From Candidatus Campbellbacteria bacterium (GTDB lineage: Bacteria > Patescibacteriota > Minisyncoccia > Phycocordibacterales > EsbW-18): 64,000 bases of DNA. Positions 10,422 to 26,501 of the stretch are shown here, one piece after another. The position numbers were made by a program, and so were the translations under genes. Numbering within the stretch: the first letter of the stretch is position 1; every line of letters starts with the position of its first letter. Below the pieces are notes generated by a model. The model saw nothing but the letters and a program-made list of their open reading frames with translations. It was not told the DNA's origin and did no database searches. Where the stretch lies: positions 8,647 through 72,646 of the forward strand of contig BTUR01000003.1 in assembly GCA_045863475.1 (NCBI GenBank). Reading direction: 5' to 3'.

Positions 10422-10439
10422 TTTTTCATTTGTATTAAG

Positions 10440-10649: not shown

Positions 10650-10696
10650 ACAGGGGAGAGGTTAAAATTCTTATATTACGGTGATCTACCGTACAT

Positions 10697-11329: not shown

Positions 11330-11337
11330 AGGTGCCC

Positions 11338-11550
11338 TTAAAAGTCCACAAGATCATTAACGCGCTTTCCCAAAGCGCGTGCAATTTTCTCCATATTTGT
11401 GAGGGTGATATTTTTCTCTGCACGTTCAATCATTCCGATATAGGTTCTATGAACCTTGGCTAGTTCTCCCAAACGCTCCTGGGAATAGCCCTTTCGCTCA
11501 CGTTCCTCTCGCACCCTTTTGCCAAATTGTATGAGTATTTGTTTGTTCAT
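11338..11550 (-). CDS. XRE-family helix-turn-helix transcriptional regulator (Cro/CI-like)
   Basis: HTH region QERLGELAKVHRTYIGMIERAEKNITLTNMEKIARAL. First gene of the minus-strand Rep/recombinase operon. Confidence 0.8.
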   Translation of the reverse strand: MNKQILIQFGKRVREERERKGYSQERLGELAKVHRTYIGMIERAEKNITLTNMEKIARALGKRVNDLVDF

Positions 11551-11562
11551 ACCTACACCCAC

Positions 11563-11760
11563 AGTGTAGGTAGTTGCTAACTATGGTTCTACATACTATA
11601 GTTAGCATATTATGAACACCTATTATCGCCCCCTTCTTTATTTTATCTGCGGGCTCATCCTAAGCTTTGTTATATTGTCCTGGCTCAAATAAGGGCTGAT
11701 TTGTAACGCCAAACGTGCTACAATTGCTTAAAATATGGCTAATATGCTACTCCAAAACCT
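11563..11760. promoter_or_regulatory. divergent promoter/operator region between the XRE-Rep-recombinase operon and the nucleotidyltransferase operon
   Basis: Perfect inverted repeat CCTACAC-ccaca-GTGTAGG at 11564-11584. Inverted copies of the 9-mer TAGTTAGCA (TGCTAACTA at about 11574-11582 and TAGTTAGCA at about 11600-11609). The 17-mer ATACTATAGTTAGCATA recurs at 9637-9654 at the recombinase start. Confidence 0.4.
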
Positions 11761-12651
11761 ATGGCCACCACGCTTAAAGAAAGCTTTAGACAATTTGCAT
11801 CAAATGTAAATATTACAGATCGTCAAACGACGATTGTCTCAAACTGCAGGAATAACATTGTCAGTAAGATTGGTGCAAAATTGTCTTTGCACTCGGAACA
11901 GCCGTCAAAACTAATTGGTTCGTACGACAGAGATACTTCAACAAGATATCTAAGTGAGGGAGATGTTGATGTGATGGTTGTTTTACATTATGGAGACAAC
12001 GAAGACTGGGATAACAAAGACGGTGTTTCAAAATCGTTGAATCGGTTTAAGTCCATCCTACAAGAAGCATACCCGAAAACTACCTGTAAGATCGATAGAA
12101 ACTGTGTCACGATGAAATTATCCGAATTCCGTTTGGATGTCATTCCAACGTTTAGGTGGAATACCGGAGAATATACAATTCCAGATACACATCGTGGACA
12201 GTGGCTAAAAACTAACCCGGTAAGATTTGCCGAAGAGGTTACACGAATTAATAAACGAATGGATGGGACATTTATTCCCTTGATAAAAATGGTTAAGGCT
12301 TGGAACAGAGAATATACAAACAAACTTAGAGGATTTCACATCGAATGCATGATGATGGCACACTACAAGAATTATGATAAATCATACACGTATGATTCGA
12401 CCCTGAATGTGTTTTTTTCCAATCTTCCAAATTACTTAAATACAGCGTCATATGATCCAATTACAGGAGATAGGGTTGATTTATATCTCGACAACAGTTC
12501 TCTGGGCAACGATAGACAAACTTTTGTAAAGAGGGCTCAAAATACAGCAAAAAAATCTAAAGAAGCATACGAGGATGGAGAAAAATATCCGATCGTAGCT
12601 GTTGATGAATGGAAAGACATACTCGGTGAATTTTTCCCAGCTTATGGATAA
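11761..12651 (+). CDS. minimal nucleotidyltransferase of the SMODS/CD-NTase type
   Basis: Signature GS-x11-[DE]-x-D in GSYDRDTSTRYLSEGDVDVMVVL, plus a downstream third acidic strand motif RLDVIP. About 296 aa, typical for SMODS/cGAS-DncV-like enzymes. Confidence 0.6.
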   Translation: MATTLKESFRQFASNVNITDRQTTIVSNCRNNIVSKIGAKLSLHSEQPSKLIGSYDRDTSTRYLSEGDVDVMVVLHYGDNEDWDNKDGVSKSLNRFKSILQEAYPKTTCKIDRNCVTMKLSEFRLDVIPTFRWNTGEYTIPDTHRGQWLKTNPVRFAEEVTRINKRMDGTFIPLIKMVKAWNREYTNKLRGFHIECMMMAHYKNYDKSYTYDSTLNVFFSNLPNYLNTASYDPITGDRVDLYLDNSSLGNDRQTFVKRAQNTAKKSKEAYEDGEKYPIVAVDEWKDILGEFFPAYG

Positions 12652-13471
12652 TCAACAGAAAGCAATCCAACTAAATCAAATTGCTAGAATGCTTTTTAAT
12701 AATGCATCCATTAAGTGGCAATTGTCTATAGGATTAGAACTACTGGCTGGACTCATTGGAGTGGTGGCAACTCTATTGGCAACCACTTTAGGTTGGCAAA
12801 TTTCTAGTGCCATTTGCGTTGTTGTTCTATTGCTCGTTGCCTATTACCTATGGTACTCATTCGAGAAAGATTACGATAACGCAGAAACAATGAGACGACA
12901 GTCAGTGCTAACAGAAGGACTTGGTTGGCCTATGACTGATGCCCAATTTTCTCATTGGAAAAGCAGGGTTGCGTCAAAACTTTTACAAAAGGCACTATGC
13001 AACAAACGTGATGATGATTACTACACCACAACCGAGAACGTAGGACCAGAACGTTTATTGCAGATGACGCAAGAATCAGTTTTTTGGACTAGGAATCTTT
13101 ATGAAAGGCTTTTTAAATATATACTGGTGTGTTTGGTGTTAGTGGTAATCTCTCTCATTATCACTTTAAATATTGCGGTATTACCTCAAGACGAACAAGT
13201 CAGGTTGAACATCCTACACTTTATTTATCTGGTTATACCGCTACTGCTCACGATTGATTTTTTTGGTTTAGTTCTTCGTTTGCATCGTGCGATTCAGTCT
13301 TTACTGGAAGTCGAAAGAGACTTAGATCGATTAACTAAAGCTGAACATTCCGTCGAGCATATAATGAGATTGGTCGCGGAATATAACTGTATACTTGCTT
13401 CAGGAGTACCTATACCTAACTGGCTATTTTCTCGTCATCATGATGAGATACAGGCGTGTTGGAAAGAATAA
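12643..13471 (+). CDS. multi-pass membrane protein, candidate effector partner of the nucleotidyltransferase (SLATT-like?)
   Basis: Start ATG overlaps the upstream stop (ATGGATAA). Two N-terminal TM helices and two later TM helices. The ORF track gives the start as 12602. Confidence 0.5.
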
Positions 13472-14019
13472 ATATGTTAAACCGAATTTTTAAAAAGAAA
13501 AATACCCCATATTTCATAATAGTCATACTATTGGTTTGGGTTGCGTATCAGTACCTAGCAATTGCTAGTCTTAAGTCAACCGAGCTTTATCTGTATTCTT
13601 ATGTACCTCATGTTGAATTGAGTAGCACAAAATATCAGTCTGGAAGCGAGACACTATTTCACATCACAGGATTTGTAAAATTTAACAACACTACAGACCA
13701 ACCACGAAGACTTTGGCAATATCAGATTATTGAACCTTCAAACAAAATTGATGGGAGTGGAAATCGTATATACCTACTGACAGACATTATAAAATTGGAC
13801 TATGTACCACCGAGATATTTTGAACCAGTAGAAATCAAAGAGGTTCAAGATACAGGTTCTCTCGTTACCTTCACTGATGAGGCTGGCAACATATTCAGAA
13901 TCAACAAACTAACCGAAGAAGTATCGGTACAGGACACAACAGGAGATTCAACAACCCTTATAACAAATGAAAATGACTATAAGGACTTTATGAGAGAGTT
14001 TCTTCGGGGAGAGCAATAG
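13456..14019 (+). CDS. membrane-anchored protein, third gene of the nucleotidyltransferase operon
   Basis: Start overlaps the preceding gene by 16 nt. Single N-terminal TM helix (YFIIVILLVWVAYQYLAIA) followed by a beta-rich soluble domain. Confidence 0.45.
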   Translation: MLERINMLNRIFKKKNTPYFIIVILLVWVAYQYLAIASLKSTELYLYSYVPHVELSSTKYQSGSETLFHITGFVKFNNTTDQPRRLWQYQIIEPSNKIDGSGNRIYLLTDIIKLDYVPPRYFEPVEIKEVQDTGSLVTFTDEAGNIFRINKLTEEVSVQDTTGDSTTLITNENDYKDFMREFLRGEQ

Positions 14020-14062
14020 TGGTTCCAATATCGTCCCATAATGCCAACTCGATAACTATAGT

Positions 14063-14770
14063 ATGCAGGTAAAAACTTACTTGAACACCACCAAGGAAGA
14101 GGTGGAAGCAAAAGAACATAACATTTGGATTGGGATAAGTCTCGGAAACAAATATTTCACCAAAGAAAACATCCACGCATACATTTTGTGGGCACTTAAG
14201 CATACGAAAGATGATGTGCTTGTGGCAATTATTGACGATATCTATGCAATAAATCTCGAGGTTTTTGATAAGCGATCAAAGGACTCTTCACTTCGTAGGG
14301 CGCGCAGAAAGGGCGATACAAAGGCCGTCGAGGTTCAGGAAATTGTCGATGGTTTGTCTGGTAGGGATAAGGCGCGGGTTCATATAGTTCGGTGGATTGA
14401 CTTAATCAACTCAAAATACCACTCATACAGAACCAAGATACTGTATGACGAGTTTGAATCAAATAAAGCTTTTCACGACTACATTCTCGAGATTATCAGG
14501 GAAGGAAGAAGTGATAGGTTGCAAGAGCTAGACGAAGCGGGGATAGAAAAGTTGGCGGAGTATGTTCTTAAGGAGATACCAGTTTTCATCAACGGGGCAA
14601 AATACAAGACAAAAGATGGGTGGAAAACATACTCACTTATTCCATATCCAGGTCTTACAAAACTCGACGAATTGTTTATTGGTTTGCAGAATAAGGATCT
14701 TTTCTCCGAACTTGCGGAAAAACTAAAGATAACTGATAAGATTGCTATACTCGAGGCTTATCCTCGTTAA
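14063..14770 (+). CDS. tRNA-dependent cyclodipeptide synthase (CDPS)-like protein
   Basis: GISLGNKYF matches the AlbC catalytic-serine pocket GISAGNSYF, and AEYVLKEIPVF matches the AlbC YVLAEAPLF region containing the conserved Tyr/Glu. Size of 235 aa and a basic RRARRK patch also fit the CDPS family. Confidence 0.6.
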   Translation: MQVKTYLNTTKEEVEAKEHNIWIGISLGNKYFTKENIHAYILWALKHTKDDVLVAIIDDIYAINLEVFDKRSKDSSLRRARRKGDTKAVEVQEIVDGLSGRDKARVHIVRWIDLINSKYHSYRTKILYDEFESNKAFHDYILEIIREGRSDRLQELDEAGIEKLAEYVLKEIPVFINGAKYKTKDGWKTYSLIPYPGLTKLDELFIGLQNKDLFSELAEKLKITDKIAILEAYPR

Positions 14771-14820
14771 ATAAGGCGACGGTTCCAACATCGTCCCATA
14801 ATGCCAACAATGGAAAATTT

Positions 14821-14855
14821 GGCGGCTTCTGCCGCCTGAAATTTTGCATATTTTG
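14821..14855 (+). terminator. rho-independent terminator after the CDPS-like gene
   Basis: GGCGGC-TTCT-GCCGCC hairpin followed by TGAAATTTTG. Confidence 0.4.
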
Positions 14856-14916
14856 CGCCGGACTAGGATTCGATGGCCGCAGGCGCGCCATTGGTCCAAG
14901 CGCCGAGGCGGGGTCG

Positions 14917-14986
14917 AGAGTACTTTGCATTTTGTCGTGTACGCGAGCAAAATGCTTAGTAACTCGTGACAGAATCCTGGTCCTAT
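14917..14986. repeat. attC-like imperfect palindrome plus tRNA-Gln-3'-end-like core, copy 1 (copy 2 at 21532..21598)
   Basis: CGAGAGTACTTTGCATTTTGTCG-loop-CGAGCAAAATGCTTAGTAACTCG followed by GAATCCTGGTCC. It is about 90% identical to 21532-21598. Confidence 0.6.
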
Positions 14987-15048
14987 AGGGTTTACGGATC
15001 GAAGGAGAATCCTAGTCCAATAACATTAAGATTTAATCCAATTCATAA

Positions 15049-15678
15049 ATGATATTTCTCACCTCAAGTGTCGGTTCCGTTGCCACACATCTCTACAAGA
15101 ACTTTCTTGCCGACAAAGGGTTTATATCGGTGCTTTTTATTGATACTGCGGCTGAACCAGAAATCGGCAACGGAGAAGATGATGGGTGGCTTCAAAATGA
15201 CCTTCAGTCTCTTCGGGATCAGGGGTACAGAGTGGATCGGTACACAATAACAGGGAAGGAGCGAGGTGAGATTGAAAGGAAGCTCGATGAGTATGATGTT
15301 ATCTACATGTCTGGTGGCAACACGGCTTATTTACTCGACCAGTTGCAGAAGACAAACTCCTTCACTCTAATCAAGGAAAAGGTTGGTCACGGCAAGCCGT
15401 ATATCGCTACGAGTGCAGGTTCGATTATCGCCGGCCCCAGAATTCCCGAGTATCTTAGGGAGGGGGAGCCTGCTCTCGATGATTACACCGCATTCGGTTT
15501 TGTTAATTTTGTAGTGGCCCCGCATTGGGGTTCGGATATATTTAGAGATGAGTACATAGGAGGAAGAATTGAAACCGCATACAGGCTTGATCAGCCGCCG
15601 TATGTTCTTTTGAACGATATGCAGTATATCTTCGTCAACGACGACGGTTTAGTTAGAATCGTAGAGACAAAACCATAA
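15049..15678 (+). CDS. peptidase family S51 (dipeptidase E / cyanophycinase-like)
   Basis: MSGGNTAYL (GGNT motif) and the nucleophile-Ser motif ATSAGS, plus a downstream His (PHWGSD). 209 aa. Confidence 0.7.
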   Translation: MIFLTSSVGSVATHLYKNFLADKGFISVLFIDTAAEPEIGNGEDDGWLQNDLQSLRDQGYRVDRYTITGKERGEIERKLDEYDVIYMSGGNTAYLLDQLQKTNSFTLIKEKVGHGKPYIATSAGSIIAGPRIPEYLREGEPALDDYTAFGFVNFVVAPHWGSDIFRDEYIGGRIETAYRLDQPPYVLLNDMQYIFVNDDGLVRIVETKP

Positions 15679-15716
15679 CTCGAATCCTAGTCCGGGGTAT
15701 TTTAATTTTTTCAACC

Positions 15717-16883
15717 ATGAAAGTTCTACTCACCGGTGTTGCTGGAACGGGAAAATCGACGCTCACAAAAGCCTTGGTGGGAAGAGGAATTGCAGCGATA
15801 GACCTCCACGACATCCCCGGTCTGTGTTATTGGCAGGACAAAAAGACAAAACAAAAAGTTGAATATGTTCCAACCAACTCGCGAGAATGGTTTGATACGG
15901 TGGACCGCTTATGCGACATCGAGCAATTGAAAGAGGTTCTTAATCAACAAGACAGCATTATTGTCGCAGGTACAGCAGGCGAGAGTCAGAGCGAATATCT
16001 TCCGCTTTTTGATAAAGTTATACTTTTGCAATGTAGTCCAGAAACTGTTGTACGCCGTATGCAAACACGGACCAATAAATCTGGATACGGAAAAACAAAA
16101 GCAGAACAGGATGACACCGTTGAGTGGCAGAAAGGATTTGACTCAGAACTTCTCTCACGTGGTGCGATTCCTCTTAATACGGAAGGTGATGTTGATGAAA
16201 CCGTAGACAGAATTATTGAGATAACAAAAATACCCTCGCGGTCCTGGTCCAGAAACAAAAACATGAGTGCAACAAAGGAAGAAATTGAGGTTATTTTTCT
16301 TGAAATCGACAAAGACGAGGTGGAGAAGAAACTCGCCGCTCTTGGCGCCACAAAAACACGTGATTTCTTTTACCGGCATGCCTCATTCGATTATCCAGAT
16401 TATCGGCTCAATAAAGACAACAGCTGGATACGCTTGCGTGATGAGGACGGAGAAGTGCGATTGGCATTCAAGAAGCGTCTTGGCGTTACATCGCAGGACG
16501 GCAGCACGAACGACGAGGGTATGGAAGAAATTGAAACCACCGTGGGAAATTATGAAAATACCAAAATCCTTCTAGGAAAGGTTGGGTTCATCGAGAAACA
16601 CGAAGCAGAAAAGAAACGGACACGGTGGCAGTTGGGGGAGACAGAATTCGATATCGACACATGGCCGGGCATCCCGACGTTCCTTGAAATCGAGGCACCG
16701 TCATGGGAAGCGATTGATGAGGCAACGCAATCCCTCGGGTTGGACCCGAAGAGCAGAAAAATCTGCTCGGTGAACCAGGTGTACCGCATGTACGGTATGG
16801 ATGTTGATGATTATCAGAAACTCAGCTTCAACGGATTGGTCAAGAAACAACCGAATCTTAGTCCGGCAACAAATAAAAAATAA
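15717..16883 (+). CDS. fusion of a P-loop (uridine-kinase-like) kinase domain and a CYTH domain (CyaB/thiamine-triphosphatase fold)
   Basis: N-terminus LLTGVAGTGKSTL Walker A. C-terminal half carries IRLR and the terminal EFDIDTWPGIPTFLEIE motif typical of CYTH domains. The N-domain is paralogous to ORF 18978..19478. Confidence 0.6.
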   Translation: MKVLLTGVAGTGKSTLTKALVGRGIAAIDLHDIPGLCYWQDKKTKQKVEYVPTNSREWFDTVDRLCDIEQLKEVLNQQDSIIVAGTAGESQSEYLPLFDKVILLQCSPETVVRRMQTRTNKSGYGKTKAEQDDTVEWQKGFDSELLSRGAIPLNTEGDVDETVDRIIEITKIPSRSWSRNKNMSATKEEIEVIFLEIDKDEVEKKLAALGATKTRDFFYRHASFDYPDYRLNKDNSWIRLRDEDGEVRLAFKKRLGVTSQDGSTNDEGMEEIETTVGNYENTKILLGKVGFIEKHEAEKKRTRWQLGETEFDIDTWPGIPTFLEIEAPSWEAIDEATQSLGLDPKSRKICSVNQVYRMYGMDVDDYQKLSFNGLVKKQPNLSPATNKK

Positions 16884-16888
16884 TTTGT

Positions 16889-17020
16889 ATGCATAAGGCA
16901 GAACCATCTGAAGAGCTGTTGCAATGTTATGACGAGGAAGGAAATCATTCCGAACCGCCAATTGCAGAGCTATCTGGAAATTGTAATTTTCATACTCCAT
17001 ATATTGACTTTCCAATATAA
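16889..17020 (+). pseudogene. truncated duplicate of the 5' end of the Nudix gene
   Basis: MHKAEPSEELLQCYDEEGN... is highly similar to the Nudix N-terminus at 20030 (MHKAEPPQELLQCYDDQGS), then diverges and stops after 43 codons. Confidence 0.5.
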
Positions 17021-17158
17021 AGATGATATAATCCCCATCGGAGGCATCAGGAGGTGCTTCTTCCAAAACAACCATTTCGGAGGGAGGTCTCCTTGAAAAA
17101 CGAATATCCTGATTCACGCTGGTTGAGCACTGCGCTCGCCCTGCCTGCCGGTCAGATC

Positions 17159-17896
17159 ATGGCTGAGAAGTTCAGTGTGGGCACAACCTCGGTTTGGAAG
17201 TCCGACCGGACTCCCGTCACCGAGGCCGACACCCAGATCAACGAGCTCGTCCTCAACGCACTTCGCCGCCACTACCCCCACATCCACGTGATCTCGGAGG
17301 AAGGCAATGGCGAGGTGGACGGCGCCGAGTATCGCATCCTCTGCGATCCTCTCGACGGCACGTTTGCGTTCATGTACGGGCTTCCGATTTCGTCGTTCTG
17401 CATCTCGGTGCTCCGCGAGAACACGGTCCTGTCGTCGGTCATCTATGACCCGTTCTGCAAGAGAATGTGGTCGGCGGATCGAGGCAAGGGCGCGTTCCTC
17501 AACGGAGCTCCGACGCGGGTCAACGTGATCGACGGCATCACGAAGCCCAATCCGGTGAACGTGTGCATCGTGTGGTGGCAGGGATGCTACTACAATATGC
17601 ACGCAGTCGCTGGTGAGGTCATGGCCGCCAACATGCACGTCATGCAACCCATGACGATCGCACTATGTGGAGGCCTCATCGCTTCGGGCACGCTCGAGGC
17701 GACTGTGTTTCCCGGTCAGAGAGGTTGGGAAACGGCTGCGATGGGTCTGATTGTGGAAGAGTCCGGTGGCAAGGTCACCGACATCCACGGCAATCCCGTC
17801 CAGTACGGACCGACCGCCGAGATCGAAGGGCACATCATCAGCAACGGCACCCTCGTTCACAACTCGCTTGTCGATATCGTGCGGAGGTGTCAGTAA
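17159..17896 (+). CDS. inositol monophosphatase family phosphatase (SuhB/CysQ-like, possible 3'(2'),5'-bisphosphate nucleotidase)
   Basis: DPLDGT metal-binding motif and WETAAMGLIVEESGG (WDxAAG-like). GC is clearly higher than in neighbouring genes. Confidence 0.75.
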   Translation: MAEKFSVGTTSVWKSDRTPVTEADTQINELVLNALRRHYPHIHVISEEGNGEVDGAEYRILCDPLDGTFAFMYGLPISSFCISVLRENTVLSSVIYDPFCKRMWSADRGKGAFLNGAPTRVNVIDGITKPNPVNVCIVWWQGCYYNMHAVAGEVMAANMHVMQPMTIALCGGLIASGTLEATVFPGQRGWETAAMGLIVEESGGKVTDIHGNPVQYGPTAEIEGHIISNGTLVHNSLVDIVRRCQ

Positions 17897-17967
17897 CAGG
17901 AATCAGGCAGAAGACAGGGACCCAATGGCCACGAGCCAGTGGGTCCCTTTTGCTATATACTTTTTAC

Positions 17968-18933
17968 ATGGATATACTCTCAGCTTTTAAAGAGGGAAAG
18001 GTAGATGGAGAAAACTCAACACCTGAACATATTGTTACGGGTATTTCAAACATTTTTGTATTTGAAACAAAGGCATACAAACTCTATAAGAGTGACAGTC
18101 AATTTTTTAACGAGAATTTCAACGACCTGTCTAAGAAAGAAAATAGATTCTCTTTCACGAGGAAAGATTTTGAATGGAATAACCGTCTGAGTCCTGAGAT
18201 TTACACTCAACTAAAAGGGGTGGTGGTTAGTGATGGTCGAGTTAAGTTTGTCGATCCAACAGATTCTGTTGAAGAGCTTGTGATTGTTATGAATAAGATT
18301 GACATGTCAGATCAGGTCATCCGAAAGCTTGTAGACAATCAGCTGTCACTTAACGATTGTTATGAAATCGGAAAGCAGTTCGGCGAACGCTCTTTAAAAC
18401 TTCCTCCGGCAAGTGTGAATATAACTGCGTACAAAGATTTCCTCACTCGTCATCACGATGAAGCTGCTTGGATAAAGAGTGTGAAGGAGGTGCCGGAAGA
18501 TGAAGCCGACAAGTATCTTACGTTCGTTAAAGATTGTATCGAGAAATACCGCGAGATCCTTGAAAGTTCTAACCAAATAGGGCTCTGTTTAGATGTGCAT
18601 GCTGATAACGCAATTTATACGAATGGCACCTTTTTGCCCATAGATACGTATGCACCAAAGGAAGCCTGGCTGTATGGATTCAAAAATATAAATATCTACA
18701 GAATTGCGACGGATTTCTATGTCTTCCTGGGTGAGGAAGCTTTTAATGAGGTTATTCGTGGTTATGAGGATGCAACTGGTCAAAAGCTTCCAAGGGACTG
18801 GGATACTTTCATGGTTGTTTATTGTGAGATCATCATGTGGCCGTATCAATACATGCTTGCCGAAAAACAACCTTGGAGAAAAGATATCGCAGAAAAGCAT
18901 CATACATTTTTGAGGTCGTTGGTGCTTAAGTAA
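17968..18933 (+). CDS. hypothetical protein with possible kinase-like (APH/protein-kinase fold) catalytic region
   Basis: 321 aa. LDVHADNAIYTNG resembles an HxDxxxxN catalytic loop and IDTY a metal-binding Asp. The start is set at ATG 17968 because the long ORF overlaps the previous gene. Weak assignment. Confidence 0.4.
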   Translation: MDILSAFKEGKVDGENSTPEHIVTGISNIFVFETKAYKLYKSDSQFFNENFNDLSKKENRFSFTRKDFEWNNRLSPEIYTQLKGVVVSDGRVKFVDPTDSVEELVIVMNKIDMSDQVIRKLVDNQLSLNDCYEIGKQFGERSLKLPPASVNITAYKDFLTRHHDEAAWIKSVKEVPEDEADKYLTFVKDCIEKYREILESSNQIGLCLDVHADNAIYTNGTFLPIDTYAPKEAWLYGFKNINIYRIATDFYVFLGEEAFNEVIRGYEDATGQKLPRDWDTFMVVYCEIIMWPYQYMLAEKQPWRKDIAEKHHTFLRSLVLK

Positions 18934-18977
18934 AATTCCCAGCATCGTCCCATAAGGTCAACAAAAAAATTCTTACC

Positions 18978-19478
18978 ATGAAAATTTACGTAACCGGTAT
19001 TTCCGGATCAGGTAAAACTAGTATCGCTCGACTTCTTAATGAGCACGGTGTATCGGCCGTCGATATTGATGAAATTAGCCACTGGGAAAATAAAGGGACA
19101 AAAGAAAGAACGGGATGGGACCACGATAAGAGCGACGAATGGTACGCGACACATGAGTGGATTTGTGATATTCAGAAACTGAAAGAGGTGCTTCTGTCAT
19201 CAGAGCATATTGTGGTTGTTGGACACGCGGCCAATCAAGAGGAGTACTTTCCTCTTTTCGATAAATCGTACGTGCTCCTGTGTAGCCCTGAGACCATTGT
19301 TGCGCGTCTAAACGCGAGAACGGATAATGATTTTGGAAAACACCCTGCCGATCAAAAGAGAATCCTTGGTTGGCAAAAAAGCTTTGAATCTGAAATGATC
19401 GAGAAGGGCGCAGAGCCACTAGACGCGGAGCGACCCTTAGAAGAAGTTATTGCGGATATCCGTTCAAATTTTTCATAA
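18978..19478 (+). CDS. stand-alone P-loop kinase, paralog of the kinase domain of 15717..16883
   Basis: Walker A GISGSGKTS. Shares W..C[DI]I[QE]KLKEVL and PLFDK..LL.CSPET.V.R motifs with the kinase-CYTH fusion. Confidence 0.6.
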   Translation: MKIYVTGISGSGKTSIARLLNEHGVSAVDIDEISHWENKGTKERTGWDHDKSDEWYATHEWICDIQKLKEVLLSSEHIVVVGHAANQEEYFPLFDKSYVLLCSPETIVARLNARTDNDFGKHPADQKRILGWQKSFESEMIEKGAEPLDAERPLEEVIADIRSNFS

Positions 19479-19521
19479 AAACGACGATTTCAAAACGATT
19501 CTGTAGGGCTAGTAAGTAAAT

Positions 19522-20022
19522 ATGTCAAAACTTTACATCATGAGTGGCGTTGGTTTTTCTGGAAAGTCGACGCTCGCAAAGAAAATCGCAGAATATACTG
19601 GAGCTATTCTTGTCAGTCAAGACGGGCTTTTCTTTGAAAAGGAGAAGGAGTTGGGTATCGACCAAGATAGTGATGAACAGTGGCGCATGCTTCTTGATAT
19701 GTGTCTCGAACGGATCCGTCAACTTCTCTCGGAGGGAAAATCGGTGGTGTTTGATAACACAAACACTCGTCACCAGCATCGCGAAGAAGTTCGGCAAGTT
19801 GCTCTGGCTACTGACGCAGAACCCATTGTTGTTTTTCTCGATACACCAATCGAGGTTCAGAAAGAGAGACAGGAAAGAAATCGAATCACTAAAGAGCGGC
19901 ACGACGTGAAGCAGGAATATCTCGACCAAGCAATCGCAGAACTGGAGGTTCCCGGAGAAGATGAGAACGTGCGAGTCTTTAAGCCAGACACAAAGTTGAG
20001 CACTTTTCTTGAAAGTCTCTAA
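19522..20022 (+). CDS. P-loop kinase, polynucleotide-kinase/AAA_33-like
   Basis: Walker A SGVGFSGKSTLAKK and a DNTNTRHQHR motif (DxTN as in T4 Pnk-type kinases). 166 aa. Confidence 0.55.
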   Translation: MSKLYIMSGVGFSGKSTLAKKIAEYTGAILVSQDGLFFEKEKELGIDQDSDEQWRMLLDMCLERIRQLLSEGKSVVFDNTNTRHQHREEVRQVALATDAEPIVVFLDTPIEVQKERQERNRITKERHDVKQEYLDQAIAELEVPGEDENVRVFKPDTKLSTFLESL

Positions 20023-20029
20023 TAATCCT

Positions 20030-20578
20030 ATGCATAAGGCAGAACCACCACAAGAACTCTTGCAATGCTATGACGATCAAGGAAGCCCGATTGATTCGAA
20101 AACACGAGCAGAGATAAAAGCTAACCCAGGAACATATTGGTGTGGTGTTGTGAACGTGTGGGTGGTAAATAGTGAGGGACAACTTCTTTGCTCAAAGCGT
20201 TCGAAAGGTCTTTCTGGTAATCCGGGGAAGTGGCAGACATATTTTGGAGGACATATTCCTGCCGGGCTTGGTTTTCGAGAAGCGGCGGTGAAGGAGTTGG
20301 GGGAAGAGACTGGTATTCATTTTGAAGAGAATAGTCTCTTTTTTATCCATCGAGGAAAAGACGATGTGAACAAGAAGTTTTTTGAGAGCTACGCAGTTCG
20401 CTTCAATGGTCAACCGAGCGATCTGGTTTTTACTGACGGAGAGATAACAGAGGCGAGGTGGATGCCTATTGAGGAATATGTTGCTGACGAGGCACAGAAC
20501 CCAGAACGGTGGTGTAATGGGTGCAAACCTGAACGCCGAAAAGCCATTCAAGAGTGGGTTAGTACCTTTCAAAAATAA
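20030..20578 (+). CDS. Nudix hydrolase
   Basis: Nudix box GGHIPAGLGFREAAVKELGEETGI. Confidence 0.8.
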   Translation: MHKAEPPQELLQCYDDQGSPIDSKTRAEIKANPGTYWCGVVNVWVVNSEGQLLCSKRSKGLSGNPGKWQTYFGGHIPAGLGFREAAVKELGEETGIHFEENSLFFIHRGKDDVNKKFFESYAVRFNGQPSDLVFTDGEITEARWMPIEEYVADEAQNPERWCNGCKPERRKAIQEWVSTFQK

Positions 20579-20598
20579 AAACCGTTTCATTAAACATC

Positions 20599-21000
20599 AT
20601 GATCTACCTCTCCTTTTTGTTGAACCTTCCATGGACGCTCATTGGGATCATCTCTGCTTTATTTTCTGTCCCGAGGAGTGTTGAGTTTTCAAAAAATCCT
20701 TTCACGATCACTTTCCGTGTTCGTAGTTTTTGGTGGTACAGATGGCTTCCTGGAAAGCAAGGAGTGCGGGCAATGGTACATGGAAATGTTGTGCAGCTTG
20801 CACCGACGGCAGATGAAAAAGACTTGGAGCACGAACTTGTTCATGTAAAACAGTACGAACGAGCACCACTTATTCACCCACTTCTTTATTTCATTGAAAC
20901 TCTTCGATATGGGTACAAGCAGAACAAGTACGAAGTAGAAGCTTATGAAAAGGCCGGTAATCTTTATTGCTGCCTTAAACCCCCTGCGGTTAAATCTTGA
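20599..21000 (+). CDS. small membrane-associated protein with HExxH motif (putative metalloprotease-like)
   Basis: N-terminal TM helix. EHELVHVKQYE contains HExxH. 133 aa. Confidence 0.35.
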   Translation: MIYLSFLLNLPWTLIGIISALFSVPRSVEFSKNPFTITFRVRSFWWYRWLPGKQGVRAMVHGNVVQLAPTADEKDLEHELVHVKQYERAPLIHPLLYFIETLRYGYKQNKYEVEAYEKAGNLYCCLKPPAVKS

Positions 21001-21069
21001 CAGGTATTCACAGAATGCTACATTGAGCGCGGAGTAACTGAATCCAGAACGCAAACCAGGAGGAATCGC

Positions 21070-21438
21070 ATGAGCCAGCCAGTCGTCGATCTCAACAGTC
21101 TCCCGTTTCGGCCCTCTCGTTCGACCGGTACCGGTCGGACCCACTTCTTCTCGGGACAAGTCGGTCTCAAGGAAGGGAAGCTTGTCGAAGGGGGGTTGGA
21201 AGCGGAGCTTCGGCAAGCGCTCGAGAACATCAAACAGCTCCTGGACGAGCTGAAGATCTCTCGAAGCCAGGTGTGCGACGTGACGGTGTTTCTCGTGGAC
21301 ATGAACGACTACGCGAGGATGAATCACGTGTACGCCGAGTTCTTCGAGGGTCACTACAAGCCCGCACGCACCTGCGTTGCGGTTGCCGCACTTCCGCTTG
21401 GTGCGCGCATCGAGCTCAAGGTGGTGGCAAGCAGCTAG
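21070..21438 (+). CDS. RidA/YjgF/TdcF-family reactive-intermediate deaminase
   Basis: Motifs VTVFLVDMNDYARMNHVYAEFF and PARTCVAVAALPLGARIELK. GC-rich. Confidence 0.8.
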   Translation: MSQPVVDLNSLPFRPSRSTGTGRTHFFSGQVGLKEGKLVEGGLEAELRQALENIKQLLDELKISRSQVCDVTVFLVDMNDYARMNHVYAEFFEGHYKPARTCVAVAALPLGARIELKVVASS

Positions 21439-21531
21439 AAGTTCCCGGAGCTTCACAGAAAAGGAGTCGCACCCAAGACTTATTCTGTGAGGCTCCTTTT
21501 CGTTTTTACGGGCATATTTGGGGCGGGGATC

Positions 21532-21598
21532 GAGAGTACTTTGCATTTTGTCGCGCAGGCGAGCAAAATGCTTAGTAACTCGTGACCGAATCCTAGTC
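21532..21598. repeat. attC-like imperfect palindrome plus tRNA-Gln-3'-end-like core, copy 2
   Basis: Second copy of the 14917-14986 element, ending in GAATCCTAGTCCG. Confidence 0.6.
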
Positions 21599-21716
21599 CG
21601 AGGGTTTCCGAGTTCCGTATGTCCGGCACCCCGAATCGAAGAAGAAAGGCGTACTCGCGGTCCTGGTCCGGCAACGTTGTTAAATAACTAGACGTTAATA
21701 AACTAAAGAGCGAATT

Positions 21717-22286
21717 ATGATAGAGGGGAATTATATAAATCCAATTTTTGTGGCTGGCCCGATAGACCGAGAAAATTTTTATAAACAATTCATGGCTCGT
21801 TTCTCTGAACTTATGCAGAAAACAAAAAGTGGAGACACGATAACTGTATTAATTAATTCTGGAGGAGGAGAAACTCATACCGCACTTGCTATATACGATT
21901 TACTTAAGTCGACAGACAGAACCTGCGTCGGAGTAGTAGCTGGTGTTGCGCAGTCTGGAGCATCATTGATACTTCAGGCTTGTGATAAAAGATTGATTAC
22001 AGAAAACAGTCATATGATGCTACACAGAAGTAATGTTCAGGTATCTGGAAAGATTGTAGATGCTCAATCCAATCTCAATACCTTCAAATCTTTGGATGAT
22101 AAATTTTATGAAATTTATGCACAAAAGGCTGGAGAGCGAGTAGAGAAGATTTCAGAAATGGCCAGCCAAGACAAACACTTTAATGCGGTCGAAGCACTAG
22201 GCGCTGGTTTGGTGGATGAAATTATCAAAGCAGAAGTAAAAAATAAAAAAGCTCTCACATTTATTAACCAAGCCTCAAATAAATGA
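21717..22286 (+). CDS. ClpP-family serine peptidase (S14), stand-alone
   Basis: INSGGGE...AIYD and VAGVAQSGASLIL (catalytic Ser) ... MMLHRS (His). 189 aa in an AT-rich tract. Confidence 0.65.
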   Translation: MIEGNYINPIFVAGPIDRENFYKQFMARFSELMQKTKSGDTITVLINSGGGETHTALAIYDLLKSTDRTCVGVVAGVAQSGASLILQACDKRLITENSHMMLHRSNVQVSGKIVDAQSNLNTFKSLDDKFYEIYAQKAGERVEKISEMASQDKHFNAVEALGAGLVDEIIKAEVKNKKALTFINQASNK

Positions 22287-22500
22287 AACAGAATTTTCCA
22301 GCGCGCTTCAAGATTACTGATGGCAAGGACGTGTATTTTTTGTGTATAAACCACGCCTTACCACAGGGTGTGGTTCCGGACGGCGTAATAATAGAAGAAA
22401 TTCCGGATGAAGCAGGGATACCTTGCAGAAACTGTTCCTCAGATTTTATTGGTAGGTAAGCTGTTTAAAAAGGCTTCAACATCACCCTAAGAAACTAGCA

Positions 22501-23280
22501 ATGAGCTTCAGAAAATATCTTTATATTTTTCTCACCATCCTCCTGATTTCCTTTTCAGGGTTTTGTGTTTTTTTGACTTGGGAGTGGGGTTTTACTCTAG
22601 GAGAAATACAAGGACTATTCAACATAATCGGGTCTGCTTCGTTGGGAATAGCGTTAGCTGCATATTTTTATAAAAAAAGACAAGATGAATTCTCTCTGGC
22701 ATCCGAAATTGTCTCATTTTTTCGAGAAAAGATAGTATACGAAGGCGACTTGGTTAGAAAAAAAATTTACGAAAAGGACAAAGGTTTTATTATTTCTCGA
22801 ATAAAAATTCCCAAAAACTGTACAATCCGTTTACTAAAAGATGACGCAGAACAGTCAGAAAATTTTGAGCGTCAATTAAGAATCTTTTTTGATTCCAATA
22901 AAAATTATCCAGATATTGTTTTGGATACTACAGTCCTCGATAGACAAATTTTTTTATTGAATATGCTGGAAGAGTTTGCTCTTAAAGCACTTACTTTTGA
23001 GGACTACAGTTTTAAGTTTGGGGGATACCATCCGTTAGGTTCACTCAAAAATGCCTTCGTTGAAATAGTAGAGCAAAATGCGGTCGCTCTATTTTTTATG
23101 AGAGATGTGCAAGTCGGAAGTGAAATATACTCATCAATCTTACGTCTGTACGAGATGTGGCACCCTTTGATACCAGGTAATAGTAGCCGTATTAAAAGGC
23201 TTGCGGTTAGTGGGTTGATAAATAAAAAACAGAGAGATGATCTTTACAAAAAAAGAGATAAAAAATTCAACCTGATTTGA
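22501..23280 (+). CDS. hypothetical membrane protein
   Basis: 259 aa, two N-terminal TM helices, AT-rich codon usage. Confidence 0.4.
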   Translation: MSFRKYLYIFLTILLISFSGFCVFLTWEWGFTLGEIQGLFNIIGSASLGIALAAYFYKKRQDEFSLASEIVSFFREKIVYEGDLVRKKIYEKDKGFIISRIKIPKNCTIRLLKDDAEQSENFERQLRIFFDSNKNYPDIVLDTTVLDRQIFLLNMLEEFALKALTFEDYSFKFGGYHPLGSLKNAFVEIVEQNAVALFFMRDVQVGSEIYSSILRLYEMWHPLIPGNSSRIKRLAVSGLINKKQRDDLYKKRDKKFNLI

Positions 23281-23322: not shown

Positions 23323-24198
23323 ATGCCCCTCCTGAAAAAACACATTTTCCTTATCGTTGCACTTACCGTTTTTACGGCCGGCGCGTTGTTCTTTGTACAA
23401 AAAACTCCGTACGTACCCGAGAAATTCCTTACAAACGAGGCACCGACTGTTGCAGAAGACGAAGTTACCACTGTTGCCTCGGTAGAAAAAGAAGTTTCAA
23501 CAGCAACACCGCTTCAGGGAAGCTTTGCGCCGTCAGACGGAGAGCTGACGGTATTTGGAACGATTTTGGAGACGAATAAACATCGCGCTCTCTTTTCTCT
23601 GCCACCACTCTCGTTTAACGCAAAACTCGCCGCTGCGGCGGATGCAAAAGCGCGTGACATGATTGCCCGGCAGTATTTTGAACACGAGTCCCCGGATGGG
23701 ATAGGACCGGACGGTTTGGCGGACGCCGCTGGGTATGACTACCTGGCTGTTGGAGAAAATCTCGCGCTCGGCAACTACGAAGACGACGCGGAGCTTGTTG
23801 CCGCGTGGATGGATTCACCCGGCCACCGCGAAAACATTTTAGGCACGCAGTACACGGAAATCGGTGTTGCGGTTGTGGAGGGTTCGTTTGAGGGTCATCG
23901 CACATGGTTTGCCGTGCAAGAATTCGGACGTCCCGCATCCGATTGTCCGCCGCCGGATACCGTACTTGAAGCGCGTATTGATTCATCGGAGCAGACGCTT
24001 GAGGAAACGGAACGTTTTCTTGAGGAAATGCTCGAAGAGATTGAAAATACCCAGCCGAAACGCGGTTCTGCCTACAATGAAAAGGTGGAGGTGTACAACG
24101 AACTGGTTACCAGCTACAACAAGCTGCTTACCGAGACCAAGGAGCTTATTGCGATATACAACGGGCAGGTGGATGAGTACAACGAGTGCGTGCAGTAG
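23323..24198 (+). CDS. membrane-anchored CAP/SCP (PR-1-like) domain protein
   Basis: N-terminal TM helix. CAP core PGHRENILGTQYTEIGVAVV and HESPDG. C-terminal coiled-coil tail. Confidence 0.75.
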   Translation: MPLLKKHIFLIVALTVFTAGALFFVQKTPYVPEKFLTNEAPTVAEDEVTTVASVEKEVSTATPLQGSFAPSDGELTVFGTILETNKHRALFSLPPLSFNAKLAAAADAKARDMIARQYFEHESPDGIGPDGLADAAGYDYLAVGENLALGNYEDDAELVAAWMDSPGHRENILGTQYTEIGVAVVEGSFEGHRTWFAVQEFGRPASDCPPPDTVLEARIDSSEQTLEETERFLEEMLEEIENTQPKRGSAYNEKVEVYNELVTSYNKLLTETKELIAIYNGQVDEYNECVQ

Positions 24199-24287: not shown

Positions 24288-24710
24288 ATGCCCGTTATCA
24301 AGTTGTGGTGCTTGCCCGCAGACCAGTCAGAAGACGACCTGCGGAAGGTACATAAGGCAGTAGTCGCGGCAGTGGTCGCCATTCCCGAGCTCTGTCTCAA
24401 GGACGAGACCCAGATGACCTGCCTCTTTCCACCCGACATGATGACCTACGGGTTGGGGGAGGAGATCGTCGTCGAGATTGGCGGGCTCTTCAAGAGAACG
24501 AGTCGAACACCAGAGGTTTGCCAGCGGCTCGCCGAGAGCGTTGGGACTGCGGTGCACAATCTGTACCCCGACGCCAAGGTGGAGTGCTTCGTCCAGACCT
24601 TCAGTCCCAGTGAGGGATTCTGGGAATCGCAGGTCGACCCGAACCCCCATCGTGCTATTCGGCAGATGGAACGATTGTTCCCGAGCCTGAGAGACCAAGG
24701 TGGCAGCTAG
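24288..24710 (+). CDS. hypothetical protein (possible tautomerase-superfamily, Pro1 after initiator Met)
   Basis: MPVIKLW... start and a 140-aa size compatible with a duplicated beta-alpha-beta unit. Weak. Confidence 0.3.
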   Translation: MPVIKLWCLPADQSEDDLRKVHKAVVAAVVAIPELCLKDETQMTCLFPPDMMTYGLGEEIVVEIGGLFKRTSRTPEVCQRLAESVGTAVHNLYPDAKVECFVQTFSPSEGFWESQVDPNPHRAIRQMERLFPSLRDQGGS

Positions 24711-24752
24711 CCGCCGAGAGAGCCGTGCGCTCTCTCGGCGGCTCTTTTGTTT
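24710..24752 (+). terminator. rho-independent terminator
   Basis: GCCGCCGAGAGAGC-CGTGC-GCTCTCTCGGCGGC followed by TCTTTTGTTT. Confidence 0.7.
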
Positions 24753-24779: not shown

Positions 24780-25709
24780 ATGCTTACCCAACTCTTTATC
24801 TTCGCCGCAGCGCTGTTTCTCGTCGTGAAAGGCGCGACAATGTCCACAAAGCACGCCGAGCGCCTCGCAAAATCTTTCAATCTCTCGGCCTACACGGTGG
24901 GCTTCATTGTGATCGCCATCATCTCCATTCTCCCGGAGACGTTCATCTCCATTAACGCCGTGTTGGAGGGAATTCCTTCGTTTGGTCTCGGCACGCTCCT
25001 CGGCTCTAACGTCGCCGACCTCACGCTCGTGTTCTTCCTCATTGTCTTGCTCTCAGGCAGAAATCTTAAGGTGGAGGGGAAAATTCTTACCGACGACGCG
25101 ATGTATCCGTTTTTGCTTATTATGCCGCTTGTGCTCGGCCTCGACGGATATTTTTCACGGGTTGAAGGTGTCGCGTTGGTGGCGACCGGTGTCTTTTTCT
25201 ACTACCTTGCGCTGAAAAACGGTCATCGTAACGAGGTGTCGGTGCGCAACAAAAAGGAGCAGGTACAAAGTGTCGTTATGCTTCTCATCGGCATGGCGCT
25301 CCTGCTTGTCGGTGCGCACTACTCGGTGACGTCGGCGACGTACTTCGCGGAGCTTTGGGGGGTGAGCCCCGTGCTCATCGGTATGCTTATCGTGGGTCTT
25401 GGCACTGTCATGCCGGAGTTTCTGTTCTCACTGCGCTCGGTGAAAGATCATGACGACGATCTTGCCATTGGGGATTTGCTCGGCACAGTACTCGCGGATG
25501 CGACCATTGTGATAGGTATCATTGCGCTTATGCAGCCGTTTGCGTTTTCCAAGACGATTATCTACGTTGCAGGCGTTTTCATGGTCGCGGCGTGTTTTAT
25601 TCTCTTCTCGTTTATGCGCTCAGGCAGGGCACTGACGAAGAAAGAAGGGTATGCGCTCTTCGTGTTTTGGCTGACGTTTGTGCTTATTGAGTTCATCATC
25701 AATCATTAG
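24780..25709 (+). CDS. Na+/Ca2+ (CaCA family, YrbG-like) exchanger
   Basis: Two alpha-repeats: ISILPETFISI ... GLGTLLGSNVADLTLV and GTVMPEFLFSL ... GDLLGTVLADATIV. About 10 TM helices. Confidence 0.8.
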   Translation: MLTQLFIFAAALFLVVKGATMSTKHAERLAKSFNLSAYTVGFIVIAIISILPETFISINAVLEGIPSFGLGTLLGSNVADLTLVFFLIVLLSGRNLKVEGKILTDDAMYPFLLIMPLVLGLDGYFSRVEGVALVATGVFFYYLALKNGHRNEVSVRNKKEQVQSVVMLLIGMALLLVGAHYSVTSATYFAELWGVSPVLIGMLIVGLGTVMPEFLFSLRSVKDHDDDLAIGDLLGTVLADATIVIGIIALMQPFAFSKTIIYVAGVFMVAACFILFSFMRSGRALTKKEGYALFVFWLTFVLIEFIINH

Positions 25710-25725
25710 TTTTAATCCACACACT

Positions 25726-26448: not shown

Positions 26449-26454
26449 AACACA

Positions 26455-26488
26455 TAATAAAAAACCCCGGCATGCCGGGGTTTTTTAT
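26455..26488. terminator. bidirectional rho-independent terminator between convergent genes
   Basis: AAAAACCCCGGCATGCCGGGGTTTTTT. Confidence 0.7.
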
Positions 26489-26501
26489 TGCTGTGTCCGT
26501 A

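Follow-up and report, generated by a model that had tools for sequence, protein, structure and literature searches.

The window analysed here, a stretch of 64,000 nucleotides (nt) from a Candidatus Campbellbacteria genome, carries at positions 15717-20578 a 4.9-kb block of enzyme genes, all on the + strand. We conclude that this block is probably a mosaic, the product of site-specific integration and recombination that recurred at the 3' end of a tRNA-Gln(CTG) gene, and that it holds independent salvage and house-cleaning enzymes rather than a co-evolved pathway. Its first open reading frame (ORF), in which a P-loop kinase is joined to a CYTH domain within 388 amino acids (aa), is a chimera, the lineage-specific read-through of an integration scar. 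An earlier note on this DNA had suggested that the block might serve a nucleotide signal or a defence together with a SMODS nucleotidyltransferase of the same island, with ordinary salvage-type enzymes carried by the island as its fall-back; the fall-back came closest to our result. Accretion at an integration hot spot, not a conserved operon, explains the clustering of kinases and phosphohydrolases. The block is a structure of a known kind, an accreted tRNA-site patchwork, with one scar-generated chimeric ORF.

A kinase-CYTH chimera generated by an integration scar

The uninterrupted form of the site was found in a related metagenome-assembled genome (L013). L013 and the window are collinear over two tRNA-Thr genes, prfB, ftsE, ftsX and tRNA-Gln, and in L013 a stand-alone CYTH orthologue, 72-75% identical, starts 17 nt past tRNA-Gln(CTG). 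In the alignment, the succession of tRNA remnant, 6-nt spacer and ATG in the window corresponds to the tRNA 3' end, spacer and ATG in L013. With tRNA-Gln standing directly before CYTH there, the resident gene beside this tRNA is CYTH, and the ~8 kb that separate the two in the window are inserted DNA. In order, this insert comprises an element with a recombinase, a replication initiator (Rep), a cyclic-oligonucleotide-based antiphage signalling system (CBASS) and a cyclodipeptide synthase (CDPS), then a peptidase S51 unit and an AAA_18 kinase unit.

The 388-aa ORF (15717-16883) matches AAA_18 over residues 3-123 (E 1.5e-14) and CYTH over residues 189-339 (E 6.1e-11). Its kinase part, 61-66% identical to stand-alone or Nudix-fused kinases, has a complete or nearly complete C-terminus and no stop codon. 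Between the end of the kinase homology (...IIEITK) and M183 of CYTH, a remnant at 16235-16256 codes the 11-aa linker IPSRSWSRNKN; a further remnant, at 16853-16873, codes an added C-terminal tail, QPNLSPATNKK, beyond the point (...GLVKK) at which CYTH homologues stop. The GC content of third codon positions (GC3) is 0.37 in the kinase part versus 0.56 in CYTH, the latter near the host value. From the arrangement in L013 together with these scars we infer that the ORF is an inserted kinase gene reading via an attR-like scar into the resident CYTH gene.

In our searches the fusion was confined to this locus. A word-indexed search of 5.8 billion clusters gave 12 matches and no full-length homologue among them, and in a HMMER search of 1.84 billion cluster representatives none of the best 150 of 2917 matches spanned both domains. 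The identical 388-aa protein occurs in two further assemblies, at the same locus and nowhere else, so it is not an assembly artefact.

In the AlphaFold model the kinase domain is confidently predicted (predicted local distance difference test, pLDDT, ~90), linker residues 173-187 fall below 50, and the predicted template modelling score (pTM) is 0.47; given the disordered linker and this pTM, no packed interface between the domains is predicted. Both domains keep their catalytic motifs, and the chimera would probably be two independent enzymes on one chain. Beside a CBASS cyclase, a kinase-CYTH protein looks like a new signalling or defence enzyme, and its recognition as a scar-made chimera averts a misannotation. 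It is also a clean, sequence-resolved case of mobile-element integration making a new two-domain ORF.

Features of the block and the island

Genes were assigned from the ORF list together with Pfam, NCBIfam, PADLOC and PHROG scans. The seven features listed in the earlier note are all present on the + strand where it had placed them, and its domain calls agree with Pfam, NCBIfam, PHROG and fold searches. In all, the block packs four kinases and three phosphohydrolases into its 4.9 kb, co-oriented and tightly spaced. The features between 8112 and 21675 are as follows.

8112-8183, + strand: tRNA-Gln(CTG), integration target, attL side (ARAGORN; Rfam tRNA, 62.5 bits)
8171-9658, - strand: large serine recombinase (integrase) of the youngest element (phrog_95, E 2.7e-83; GC 0.405)
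9645-10421, - strand: rolling-circle replication initiator, Rep (Pfam REP_ORF2-G2P, E 4.7e-21; phrog_3419, E 8e-31)
11761-12651, + strand: SMODS cyclase (Pfam SMODS, E 8e-26; PADLOC cyclase, E 9.3e-65)
12602-13471, + strand: 4TM effector (PADLOC, E 2.7e-22)
14858-15020: cluster of tRNA-Gln 3'-end remnants (14858-14871, inverted; 14974-14983; 15007-15020), marking the right end of the youngest element
15049-15678, + strand: peptidase S51 gene (Pfam Peptidase_S51, E 4.4e-28)
15682-15695, + strand: tRNA-Gln 3'-core remnant, the exact 14-mer GAATCCTAGTCCGG
15717-16229, + strand: AAA_18 P-loop kinase domain of the 388-aa ORF (Pfam)
16235-16256, + strand: att-type remnant CTCGCGGTCCTGGTCCAGAAAC, coding the inter-domain linker
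16263-16850, + strand: CYTH (triphosphate tunnel) gene, which has an ATG of its own (M183) at 16263 (Pfam CYTH)
16853-16873, + strand: tRNA-Gln 3'-end remnant in place of the CYTH stop codon
16889-16945, + strand: Nudix-gene stub of 19 codons (MHKAEPSEELLQCYDEEGN)
17004-17032, + strand: near-consensus promoter ahead of the IMPase gene
17054-17896, + strand: IMPase-family phosphatase (Pfam Inositol_P, E 4e-37)
17968-18933, + strand: 321-aa kinase of APH/choline-kinase fold (predicted structure and fold search)
18978-19478, + strand: stand-alone AAA_18 kinase (Pfam), paralogue of the kinase domain of the 388-aa ORF
19522-20022, + strand: AAA_33 P-loop kinase, polynucleotide-kinase-like (Pfam, E 1.3e-22)
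20009-20578, + strand: ORF of a Nudix hydrolase, IDI-like subgroup, gene 20030-20578 (Pfam NUDIX, E 2.9e-15, 56.9 bits)
21526-21675, + strand: right-hand junction cluster with a 74-nt repeat, a core remnant (21588-21601) and a variant remnant (21654-21675)

A helix-turn-helix gene lies after Rep and ahead of the CBASS genes. The true start of the Nudix gene is probably the ATG at 20030.

The tRNA-Gln(CTG) site and its remnants

The earlier note had described the genes as a cassette block within an island, and this was borne out: the block lies in a tRNA-Gln-anchored, low-GC island scattered with tRNA remnants. GC averages ~0.40 over roughly 8.2-23.3 kb versus ~0.53 in the flanking core genes, with jumps in GC3 from gene to gene. 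As in tRNA-targeted islands generally, an integrase stands beside an intact tRNA gene and the 3' end of that tRNA is directly repeated; L013 adds the uninterrupted site. At its 3' end the serine recombinase ORF takes in the final 13 nt of tRNA-Gln(CTG), and the reverse complement of this tRNA end (8171-8183) codes the recombinase C-terminus ...LLPD*. With its tail coded by the tRNA 3' end, the integrase gene spans attL.

The 14-nt core of the tRNA 3' end, GAATCCTAGTCCGG, was matched six times in the window with at most 2 mismatches (0.22 expected), and all six sites fall within the island: 8166, 14858 (inverted), 15007, 15682, 16853 and 21588. A weaker copy lies at 14974. A variant remnant, CTCGCGGTCCTGGTCCGGCAAC, occupies 21654-21675, and the linker-coding remnant at 16235-16256 matches it at 20 of 22 positions, with 0 such matches expected by chance. 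The remnant at 15682-15695 stands 4 nt past the S51 stop codon and 21 nt ahead of the kinase start, and the S51 gene is a single-gene unit bracketed by this remnant and that at 15007-15020. CYTH and the Nudix stub each have a tRNA-Gln scar directly upstream.

Across the array from 8166 to 21675, the tRNA-Gln-like remnants fall 1-30 nt from ORF ends, and the S51, AAA_18 kinase and CYTH genes are each a single-gene unit between att-like repeats. On the + strand the inverted remnant 14858-14871 reads ...APD*; a second recombinase gene, now lost, may have had its tail here.

Two further repeats were found in the island. One, of 74 nt, occurs at 14910-14983 and 21526-21599 (92% identical); it contains an internal hairpin (GCATTTTGTCG / CGAGCAAAATGC) with a tRNA-Gln-like core at its end, and might serve as an arm for recombinase binding or act as a small RNA. 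The other, of 28 nt (GGTTCCAAYATCGTCCCATAAKGYCAAC), is present at 14021-14048, 14781-14808 and 18935-18962 (three copies, 0 expected), and had no copy in any other fetched locus. Its copies lie 1-10 nt past the stop codons of a 187-aa gene, the CDPS gene and the 321-aa kinase gene, and in two of the three cases the next start codon follows 14-15 nt beyond. An Rfam scan of the island matched the tRNA alone and gave no RNA family for either repeat.

Relatives of the element were sought among 2.9 million viral contigs. Neither att core had a match there, and the recombinase had one, at 27% identity. A look-up of identical proteins for the flanking CAP protein, made in search of an empty site, returned the same locus alone.

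Predicted activities of the block enzymes

For the kinase domain of the 388-aa ORF, the nearest structures in Foldseek were AK6/hCINAP, adenylate kinases, deoxynucleoside kinases and nicotinamide riboside kinase; its Pfam matches were AAA_18, CoaE and SKI, with no PRK/UCK model among them. It appears to be a P-loop kinase of the nucleoside or nucleoside monophosphate type.

The CYTH assignment of the C-terminal half is firm (42.9 bits against a Pfam gathering cut-off of 23.2, E 6.1e-11). Foldseek placed the domain, which is modelled with moderate confidence, next to SaTTM, the Pyrococcus CYTH proteins 1yem and 2dc4, and CyaB (E 3e-9 to 3e-7). Residues R48, R57, R59, K70, R72, E88-E91, E142 and E144 are invariant among its homologues. 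The hallmark ExExK motif is not matched: it reads EIEVI here, with both glutamates kept and the lysine replaced by isoleucine. We considered whether loss of this lysine marks a decaying gene and rejected this, as the change is common to the whole closest subclade; the position is V or I in the eight closest species and K in the other 24, which makes it a subfamily trait rather than decay. The domain also retains WxRxR (SWIRLRDE) and the C-terminal ExE (LEIEA).

Class IV adenylate cyclases need HFxxxxExExK and have the central Arg of WxRxR swapped for a small residue (PMC8233210). Here the N-terminal motif is MSATKEEIEV, with no HF, and WIRLR retains the central Arg; the TIGR00318 score, 48.3 bits, lies below the cut-off of 57.95. 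Without the HF motif, the domain is unlikely to make a cyclic nucleotide. WxRxR is a signature of the thiamine-triphosphatase type, and some CYTH enzymes are RNA triphosphatases (PMC8233210). Lack of HF and presence of WxRxR together make hydrolysis of a small organic or inorganic triphosphate the best guess, and on these motifs the CYTH half would be a WxRxR (thiamine-triphosphatase-like) tunnel hydrolase, not a cyclase.

The truncated Nudix copy that the earlier note had listed is real, and amounts to a 19-codon N-terminal stub only. Its DNA (16889-16945) shares 86% identity with the opening stretch (20029-20084) of the full Nudix gene (tblastn E 2e-5). The Nudix box of the full gene reads Gx5Lx7KELxEExGI versus the consensus GX5EX7REUXEEXGU, with the core EE kept and two deviations.

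For the phosphatase, the IMPase-like part of the earlier label holds, and the pAp-phosphatase/CysQ part finds no support at subfamily level. All subfamily models score far below their cut-offs (HisN 116 versus 275, FBPase/IMPase 101 versus 264, and CysQ TIGR01331 96.9 versus 228.8 bits), and the protein of 17054-17896 is placed by its sequence in the IMPase superfamily only, with no assignment as CysQ. Its gene has its own promoter, TTGACT, 17 nt and TATAAT, with TG, matching the consensus at 11 of 12 positions; a homologous promoter region lies upstream of the IMPase gene in L044.

The 321-aa protein downstream, previously described as kinase-like, has no sequence match in Pfam, NCBIfam or PDB and is 100% identical to a protein labelled AMXMBFR44_4550. 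Its AlphaFold model (pLDDT 93.7) resembles glucosamine kinase, APH(3'), APH(2'') and choline kinases (Foldseek E 9e-7 to 7e-5, TM ~0.5), and the Brenner-type residues D209, N214 and D226 as well as the ATP-binding K38 are invariant in 25 homologues. The predicted structure thereby confirms the earlier description and makes the protein a small-molecule kinase of the APH/choline-kinase fold. We do not take this fold as evidence for antibiotic resistance. The IMPase and the 321-aa kinase are more likely to act as a pair on a sugar, cyclitol or amino-sugar than on a nucleotide.

The stand-alone AAA_18 kinase (18978-19478) is indeed, as had been noted, a paralogue of the kinase domain of the 388-aa ORF (40% identity over 166 aa, E 2e-44). 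Of the two paralogous stand-alone kinases once counted, however, it is the only one: the 321-aa protein has a different fold, and the AAA_33 kinase is a remote relation with 24% identity over 80 aa. AAA_33 itself shows weak similarities to phage polynucleotide kinase (phrog_505, E 1.4e-12), to TIGR04075 (32 bits, domain only) and to the Clostridium thermocellum Pnkp kinase (E 1e-3).

PHROG gave no family for five of the seven block proteins, and the 2.9 million viral contigs held no relatives of the kinase (trimmed alignment), CYTH or the 321-aa kinase. Most likely, each gene of the block acts alone. Judging from their folds and from the biology of Candidate Phyla Radiation (CPR) bacteria, the enzymes would be extra copies for small-molecule and nucleotide phosphotransfer and house-cleaning, useful to a symbiont dependent on scavenged nucleotides, cofactors and sugars.

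Distribution of the block genes in other genomes

Relatives of the block genes were examined locus by locus. The AAA_33 loci (L082-L085) and that of P0007 (L086) were judged from called genes and Pfam alone.

CYTH: 32 full-length loci, one per CPR species, 45-77% identical; stand-alone with no recurrent neighbour, in contexts that include secA, CCA-adding enzyme and dnaB.
Nudix: 34 metagenome loci, 38-70% identical, many on short contigs; no homologue of another island protein nearby.
AAA_33: more than 120 CPR homologues, 51-91% identical, with four loci (two distinct places) inspected; stand-alone in core contexts.
AAA_18 kinase: one 65% orthologue inspected, alone among mraZ, rsmH, murE and a sigma-factor gene.

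The AAA_33 orthologues with 83% and 77% identity lie among spoU, holA, polA and tsaE, or among pth, S1 and gyrA. As observations that would speak against its proposal, the earlier note had named an unlinked scatter of orthologues over core positions and a C-terminal domain without a match to CYTH models. We found the orthologues scattered, unlinked and mostly in housekeeping contexts; the C-terminal domain, on the other hand, does match CYTH.

The sole recurring linkage is that of a phosphatase directly upstream of the 321-aa kinase. The partner is an IMPase in L044 and at the locus of P0018, and a His_Phos phosphatase in L045 and L046. The GC3 of IMPase and kinase differ in the same way in two genomes (0.76 versus 0.40 in the window; 0.69 versus 0.33 in L044, 4987-6812), which suggests that a ready-made mosaic pair moved between lineages. 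We had also considered the high-GC genes for IMPase and RidA as native and the low-GC genes as foreign; for IMPase this was rejected, since the same pair is present in L044, whose GC content is 40%.

In three relatives a gene of a block family is the first past tRNA-Gln(CTG): CYTH in L013 (6619-7296), a Nudix homologue in L064 (5333-6104), and His_Phos with a homologue of the 321-aa kinase in L045 (6112-7972). By our own rough estimate this is roughly 3 of 67 loci, against ~0.07 expected. A general enrichment beside tRNA genes was rejected as too weak (within 400 nt, 3 of 32 CYTH and 1 of 32 Nudix loci, versus ~3% expected); it is tRNA-Gln(CTG) specifically that is notable as a recurrent site. 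This tRNA gene may thus be a hot spot that gathers small metabolic genes in ultra-small CPR genomes. Two modules widely conserved in CPR deserve attention as well, the pair of phosphatase and APH-fold kinase and the AAA_18 kinases, which fuse repeatedly to Nudix, 2H and GrpB (the last in P0010); both may bear on how CPR symbionts scavenge metabolites.

Other chimeric relatives were seen, an IS200-type transposase-CYTH protein (P0203) and an ASCH-AAA_33 kinase (P0284). In L047 (4279-7610), the closest Nudix orthologue (70% identical) ends an array of single genes with 80-120-nt repeats between them, and one array gene with its terminator is homologous to the window gene 24288-24710 with its downstream hairpin (24288-24745). 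We examined these repeats as possible att sites and rejected this, reading them as units of terminator, promoter and 5' untranslated region (5'UTR)/Shine-Dalgarno sequence.

Assembly of the block and alternative explanations

Under the preferred reading, successive insertions at tRNA-Gln(CTG) would have pushed older material inward. The last gene to be inserted, for an AAA_18 kinase, lacks a stop codon and is read through the 22-nt attR-like remnant into CYTH; the second remnant (16853-16873) now stands in for the CYTH stop codon, so that linker and tail are both scar-coded. Further events would have added the Nudix stub, the self-promoted pair of IMPase and APH-fold kinase, and the AAA_18, AAA_33 and Nudix genes. 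More speculatively, flanking genes may have been carried along by imprecisely excising elements.

Several observations weigh against this reading. The order downstream of CYTH (the remnant at 16853, then the Nudix stub) is not fully explained by it, all block genes are co-oriented and tightly spaced, and the S51, kinase and CYTH single-gene units are neater than random decay of whole elements predicts. The chimeric ORF is intact in all three assemblies, with the catalytic motifs of both domains kept. Elsewhere, AAA_18 kinases occur in fusions with Nudix (P0005, P0006) and with a 2H phosphoesterase (P0140, E 2.7e-12), and in L001-L006 a gene for a kinase-Nudix protein shares 4 nt with a different CYTH gene, with an S51 peptidase upstream; the latter arrangement suggests that selection may favour keeping such activities together. 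From these fusions and from L001-L006 it follows that the kinases probably act on nucleotides, cofactors or RNA ends and that such genes tend to share variable regions. This functional affinity tempers our conclusion; it does not rescue a coordinated pathway in the window.

The proposal of a joint action of the SMODS cyclase with the kinases, CYTH, Nudix and IMPase, which would make, modify or degrade a nucleotide second messenger or deplete NTP or NAD for defence, is very improbable in our view. The block shares its island and strand with the CBASS cyclase, nucleotides are conceivable substrates for Nudix, CYTH and phosphatases, and the P-loop kinases gave weak, sub-threshold PADLOC matches to VakA, mad8 and PDC-M51B (E 2e-4 to 6e-4). 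We rejected these matches as generic P-loop similarity; PADLOC returned nothing better than E 1e-4 in the block. By PADLOC models the SMODS cyclase and 4TM effector (11761-13471) are a complete type I CBASS in themselves, located in the youngest element and separated from the enzyme block by att-like remnants. The co-occurrence with SMODS that the earlier note had proposed to examine, and that a CD-NTase/SMODS accessory would show, was not seen: a tblastn screen of ~80 loci of CYTH, Nudix, 321-aa kinase and AAA_18 kinase relatives found no SMODS homologue. The unlinked orthologues, the absence of the class IV cyclase HF motif from CYTH and the lack of relatives in the viral contigs likewise speak against a joint function, and the idea of a signalling or defence block was not sustained.

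A toolkit for healing or repairing RNA ends, for instance after attack by RNA-cleaving toxins, would give the two AAA_18 kinases, AAA_33, CYTH and Nudix common roles as 5'-OH kinases, triphosphatase and pyrophosphohydrolase. The polynucleotide-kinase similarities of AAA_33 point this way (phrog_505 above all, TIGR04075 and C. thermocellum Pnkp more weakly), as do the fusion of an AAA_18 relative to a 2H phosphoesterase of the LigT/2',5'-ligase type, that of an AAA_33 relative to the RNA-binding ASCH domain, and the RNA triphosphatases known among CYTH enzymes. However, no ligase, Hen1 or phosphoesterase partner is present within the window, the orthologues are unlinked elsewhere, and WxRxR in CYTH favours small organic triphosphates over RNA ends. 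AK6 and adenylate and nucleoside kinases are closest in fold to the kinase, a likeness that does not discriminate between substrates. We regard such a toolkit as quite improbable. A different kind of alternative concerns assembly, and is compatible with genes that act independently: the island could be an active integron-like array, in which the serine recombinase inserts or shuffles single-gene units at sites resembling the tRNA-Gln 3' end, or excising elements take a flanking gene with them; the block would then be a library of cassettes instead of a set of decayed elements. It would account for three consecutive single-gene units (S51 ~675 nt, kinase ~555 nt, CYTH ~615 nt) with att-like repeats 1-30 nt from ORF ends, for the second repeat class around CDPS, for the fact that CYTH, Nudix or the phosphatase-kinase pair, successive in the window, each come first after tRNA-Gln(CTG) in one of three relatives, and for the repeat-separated array beside the closest Nudix orthologue in L047. 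Yet we found no excised circles, no polymorphic strains and no identical cassettes in a different context, the viral contigs lack the att cores, the L047 repeats resemble terminator/promoter/5'UTR units, and tandem integration followed by deletion, a known process, can yield the same pattern; an active array is distinctly unlikely in our estimate.

A broader idea is that tRNA-Gln(CTG) in Campbellbacteria and other Paceibacteria is an integron-like platform for gene capture, at which serine-recombinase elements integrate again and again and, on imprecise excision, carry off the first downstream gene, be it CYTH, Nudix or the phosphatase-kinase pair according to species. We consider this generalization unlikely. 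If true, it would give rise to arrays of single metabolic genes split by tRNA-3' scars, shift such genes among CPR lineages that differ strongly in GC content, and now and then produce chimeras like kinase-CYTH.

Comparison with known systems

Tycheposon islands of Prochlorococcus grow by tandem integration at tRNA genes and leave scattered partial tRNAs behind (bioRxiv 10.1101/2020.12.28.424599). Two reports on tRNA islands describe successive integrations that displace older material inward, and large serine recombinases in some of the elements (PMC4383910; bioRxiv 10.1101/2020.12.28.424599). The present island shares with Islander and tycheposon islands the integrase beside an intact tRNA, the partial tRNA 3' ends that mark insertions, the displacement of older by newer elements and a cargo of metabolic and defence genes. 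It differs in its CPR host, its tRNA-Gln(CTG) target and its rolling-circle Rep; moreover, its older units are cut down to single genes, and a chimeric protein results from two remnants located within an ORF. An integron has an IntI tyrosine recombinase and attC sites of R''/L''-L'/R' structure; here the one recombinase seen beside the array is of the large serine type, and the repeats are tRNA-derived cores that, by eye and with no formal search for attC made, are not palindromic like attC.

The earlier note had set the kinase-CYTH protein beside fusions known mainly from eukaryotic proteins that resemble uridine kinase. Plant TTM1/TTM2 have the same domain order, an N-terminal P-loop kinase followed by a C-terminal triphosphate tunnel domain. 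They are a conserved family whose linker is short, rigid and helical and whose inter-domain interface is extensive, and their TTM domain, which is without the ExExK glutamates, regulates the kinase (PMC9582702). The kinase there is uridine/cytidine-kinase-like, whereas here it is of the AAA_18 family and AK6-like; the linker here is disordered and coded by an att scar, no sister fusion was found in our searches, and CYTH keeps both ExExK glutamates and the ExE motif. The comparison was not upheld: the protein is a scar read-through with an AAA_18 kinase, not UCK, and a disordered linker.

Closer relatives of the CYTH half are SaTTM and the Pyrococcus CYTH proteins, with which it shares the Pfam family, the fold (Foldseek E 3e-9), the invariant tunnel Arg, Lys and Glu residues, WxRxR and ExE; the ExExK lysine is Ile here. 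The unit at 11761-13471 matches a type I CBASS; the enzyme block lies outside it and contains no accessory genes of the Cap2/Cap3 type. With APH, choline and glucosamine kinases the 321-aa protein shares the fold, the catalytic D, N and D and the ATP-binding Lys. Unlike these, it has no sequence-level family and is always paired with an IMPase or His_Phos phosphatase.

Neighbouring genes

Within the youngest element, a gene for a tRNA-dependent CDPS (14063-14770) was identified by TIGR04539 (68 bits against a cut-off of 45) and Pfam CDPS (E 6e-14). It is flanked on both sides by 28-nt repeats, and the S51 (PepE-like) dipeptidase gene follows 279 nt farther on. To the right of the Nudix gene, 20599-21000 codes a protein of 133 aa that carries an HExxH motif (HELVH) and is hydrophobic over an N-terminal segment, with a weak PHROG match and no other family. 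A high-GC RidA gene (21070-21438, GC3 0.75) follows and has a promoter-like site of its own (20997-21024). In the low-GC island tail (21717-23280, GC 0.35-0.43) are a gene for a ClpP-like protease of 189 aa, an ORF of 58 aa and a gene for a membrane protein of 259 aa without a family match, and host-like GC returns at the CAP-domain gene 23323-24198. Farther downstream, at 25678-27374, lie two convergent ORFs; their products, secreted proteins of unusual composition, have long poly-Asp/Glu tracts (+ strand, 256 aa; - strand, 290 aa).

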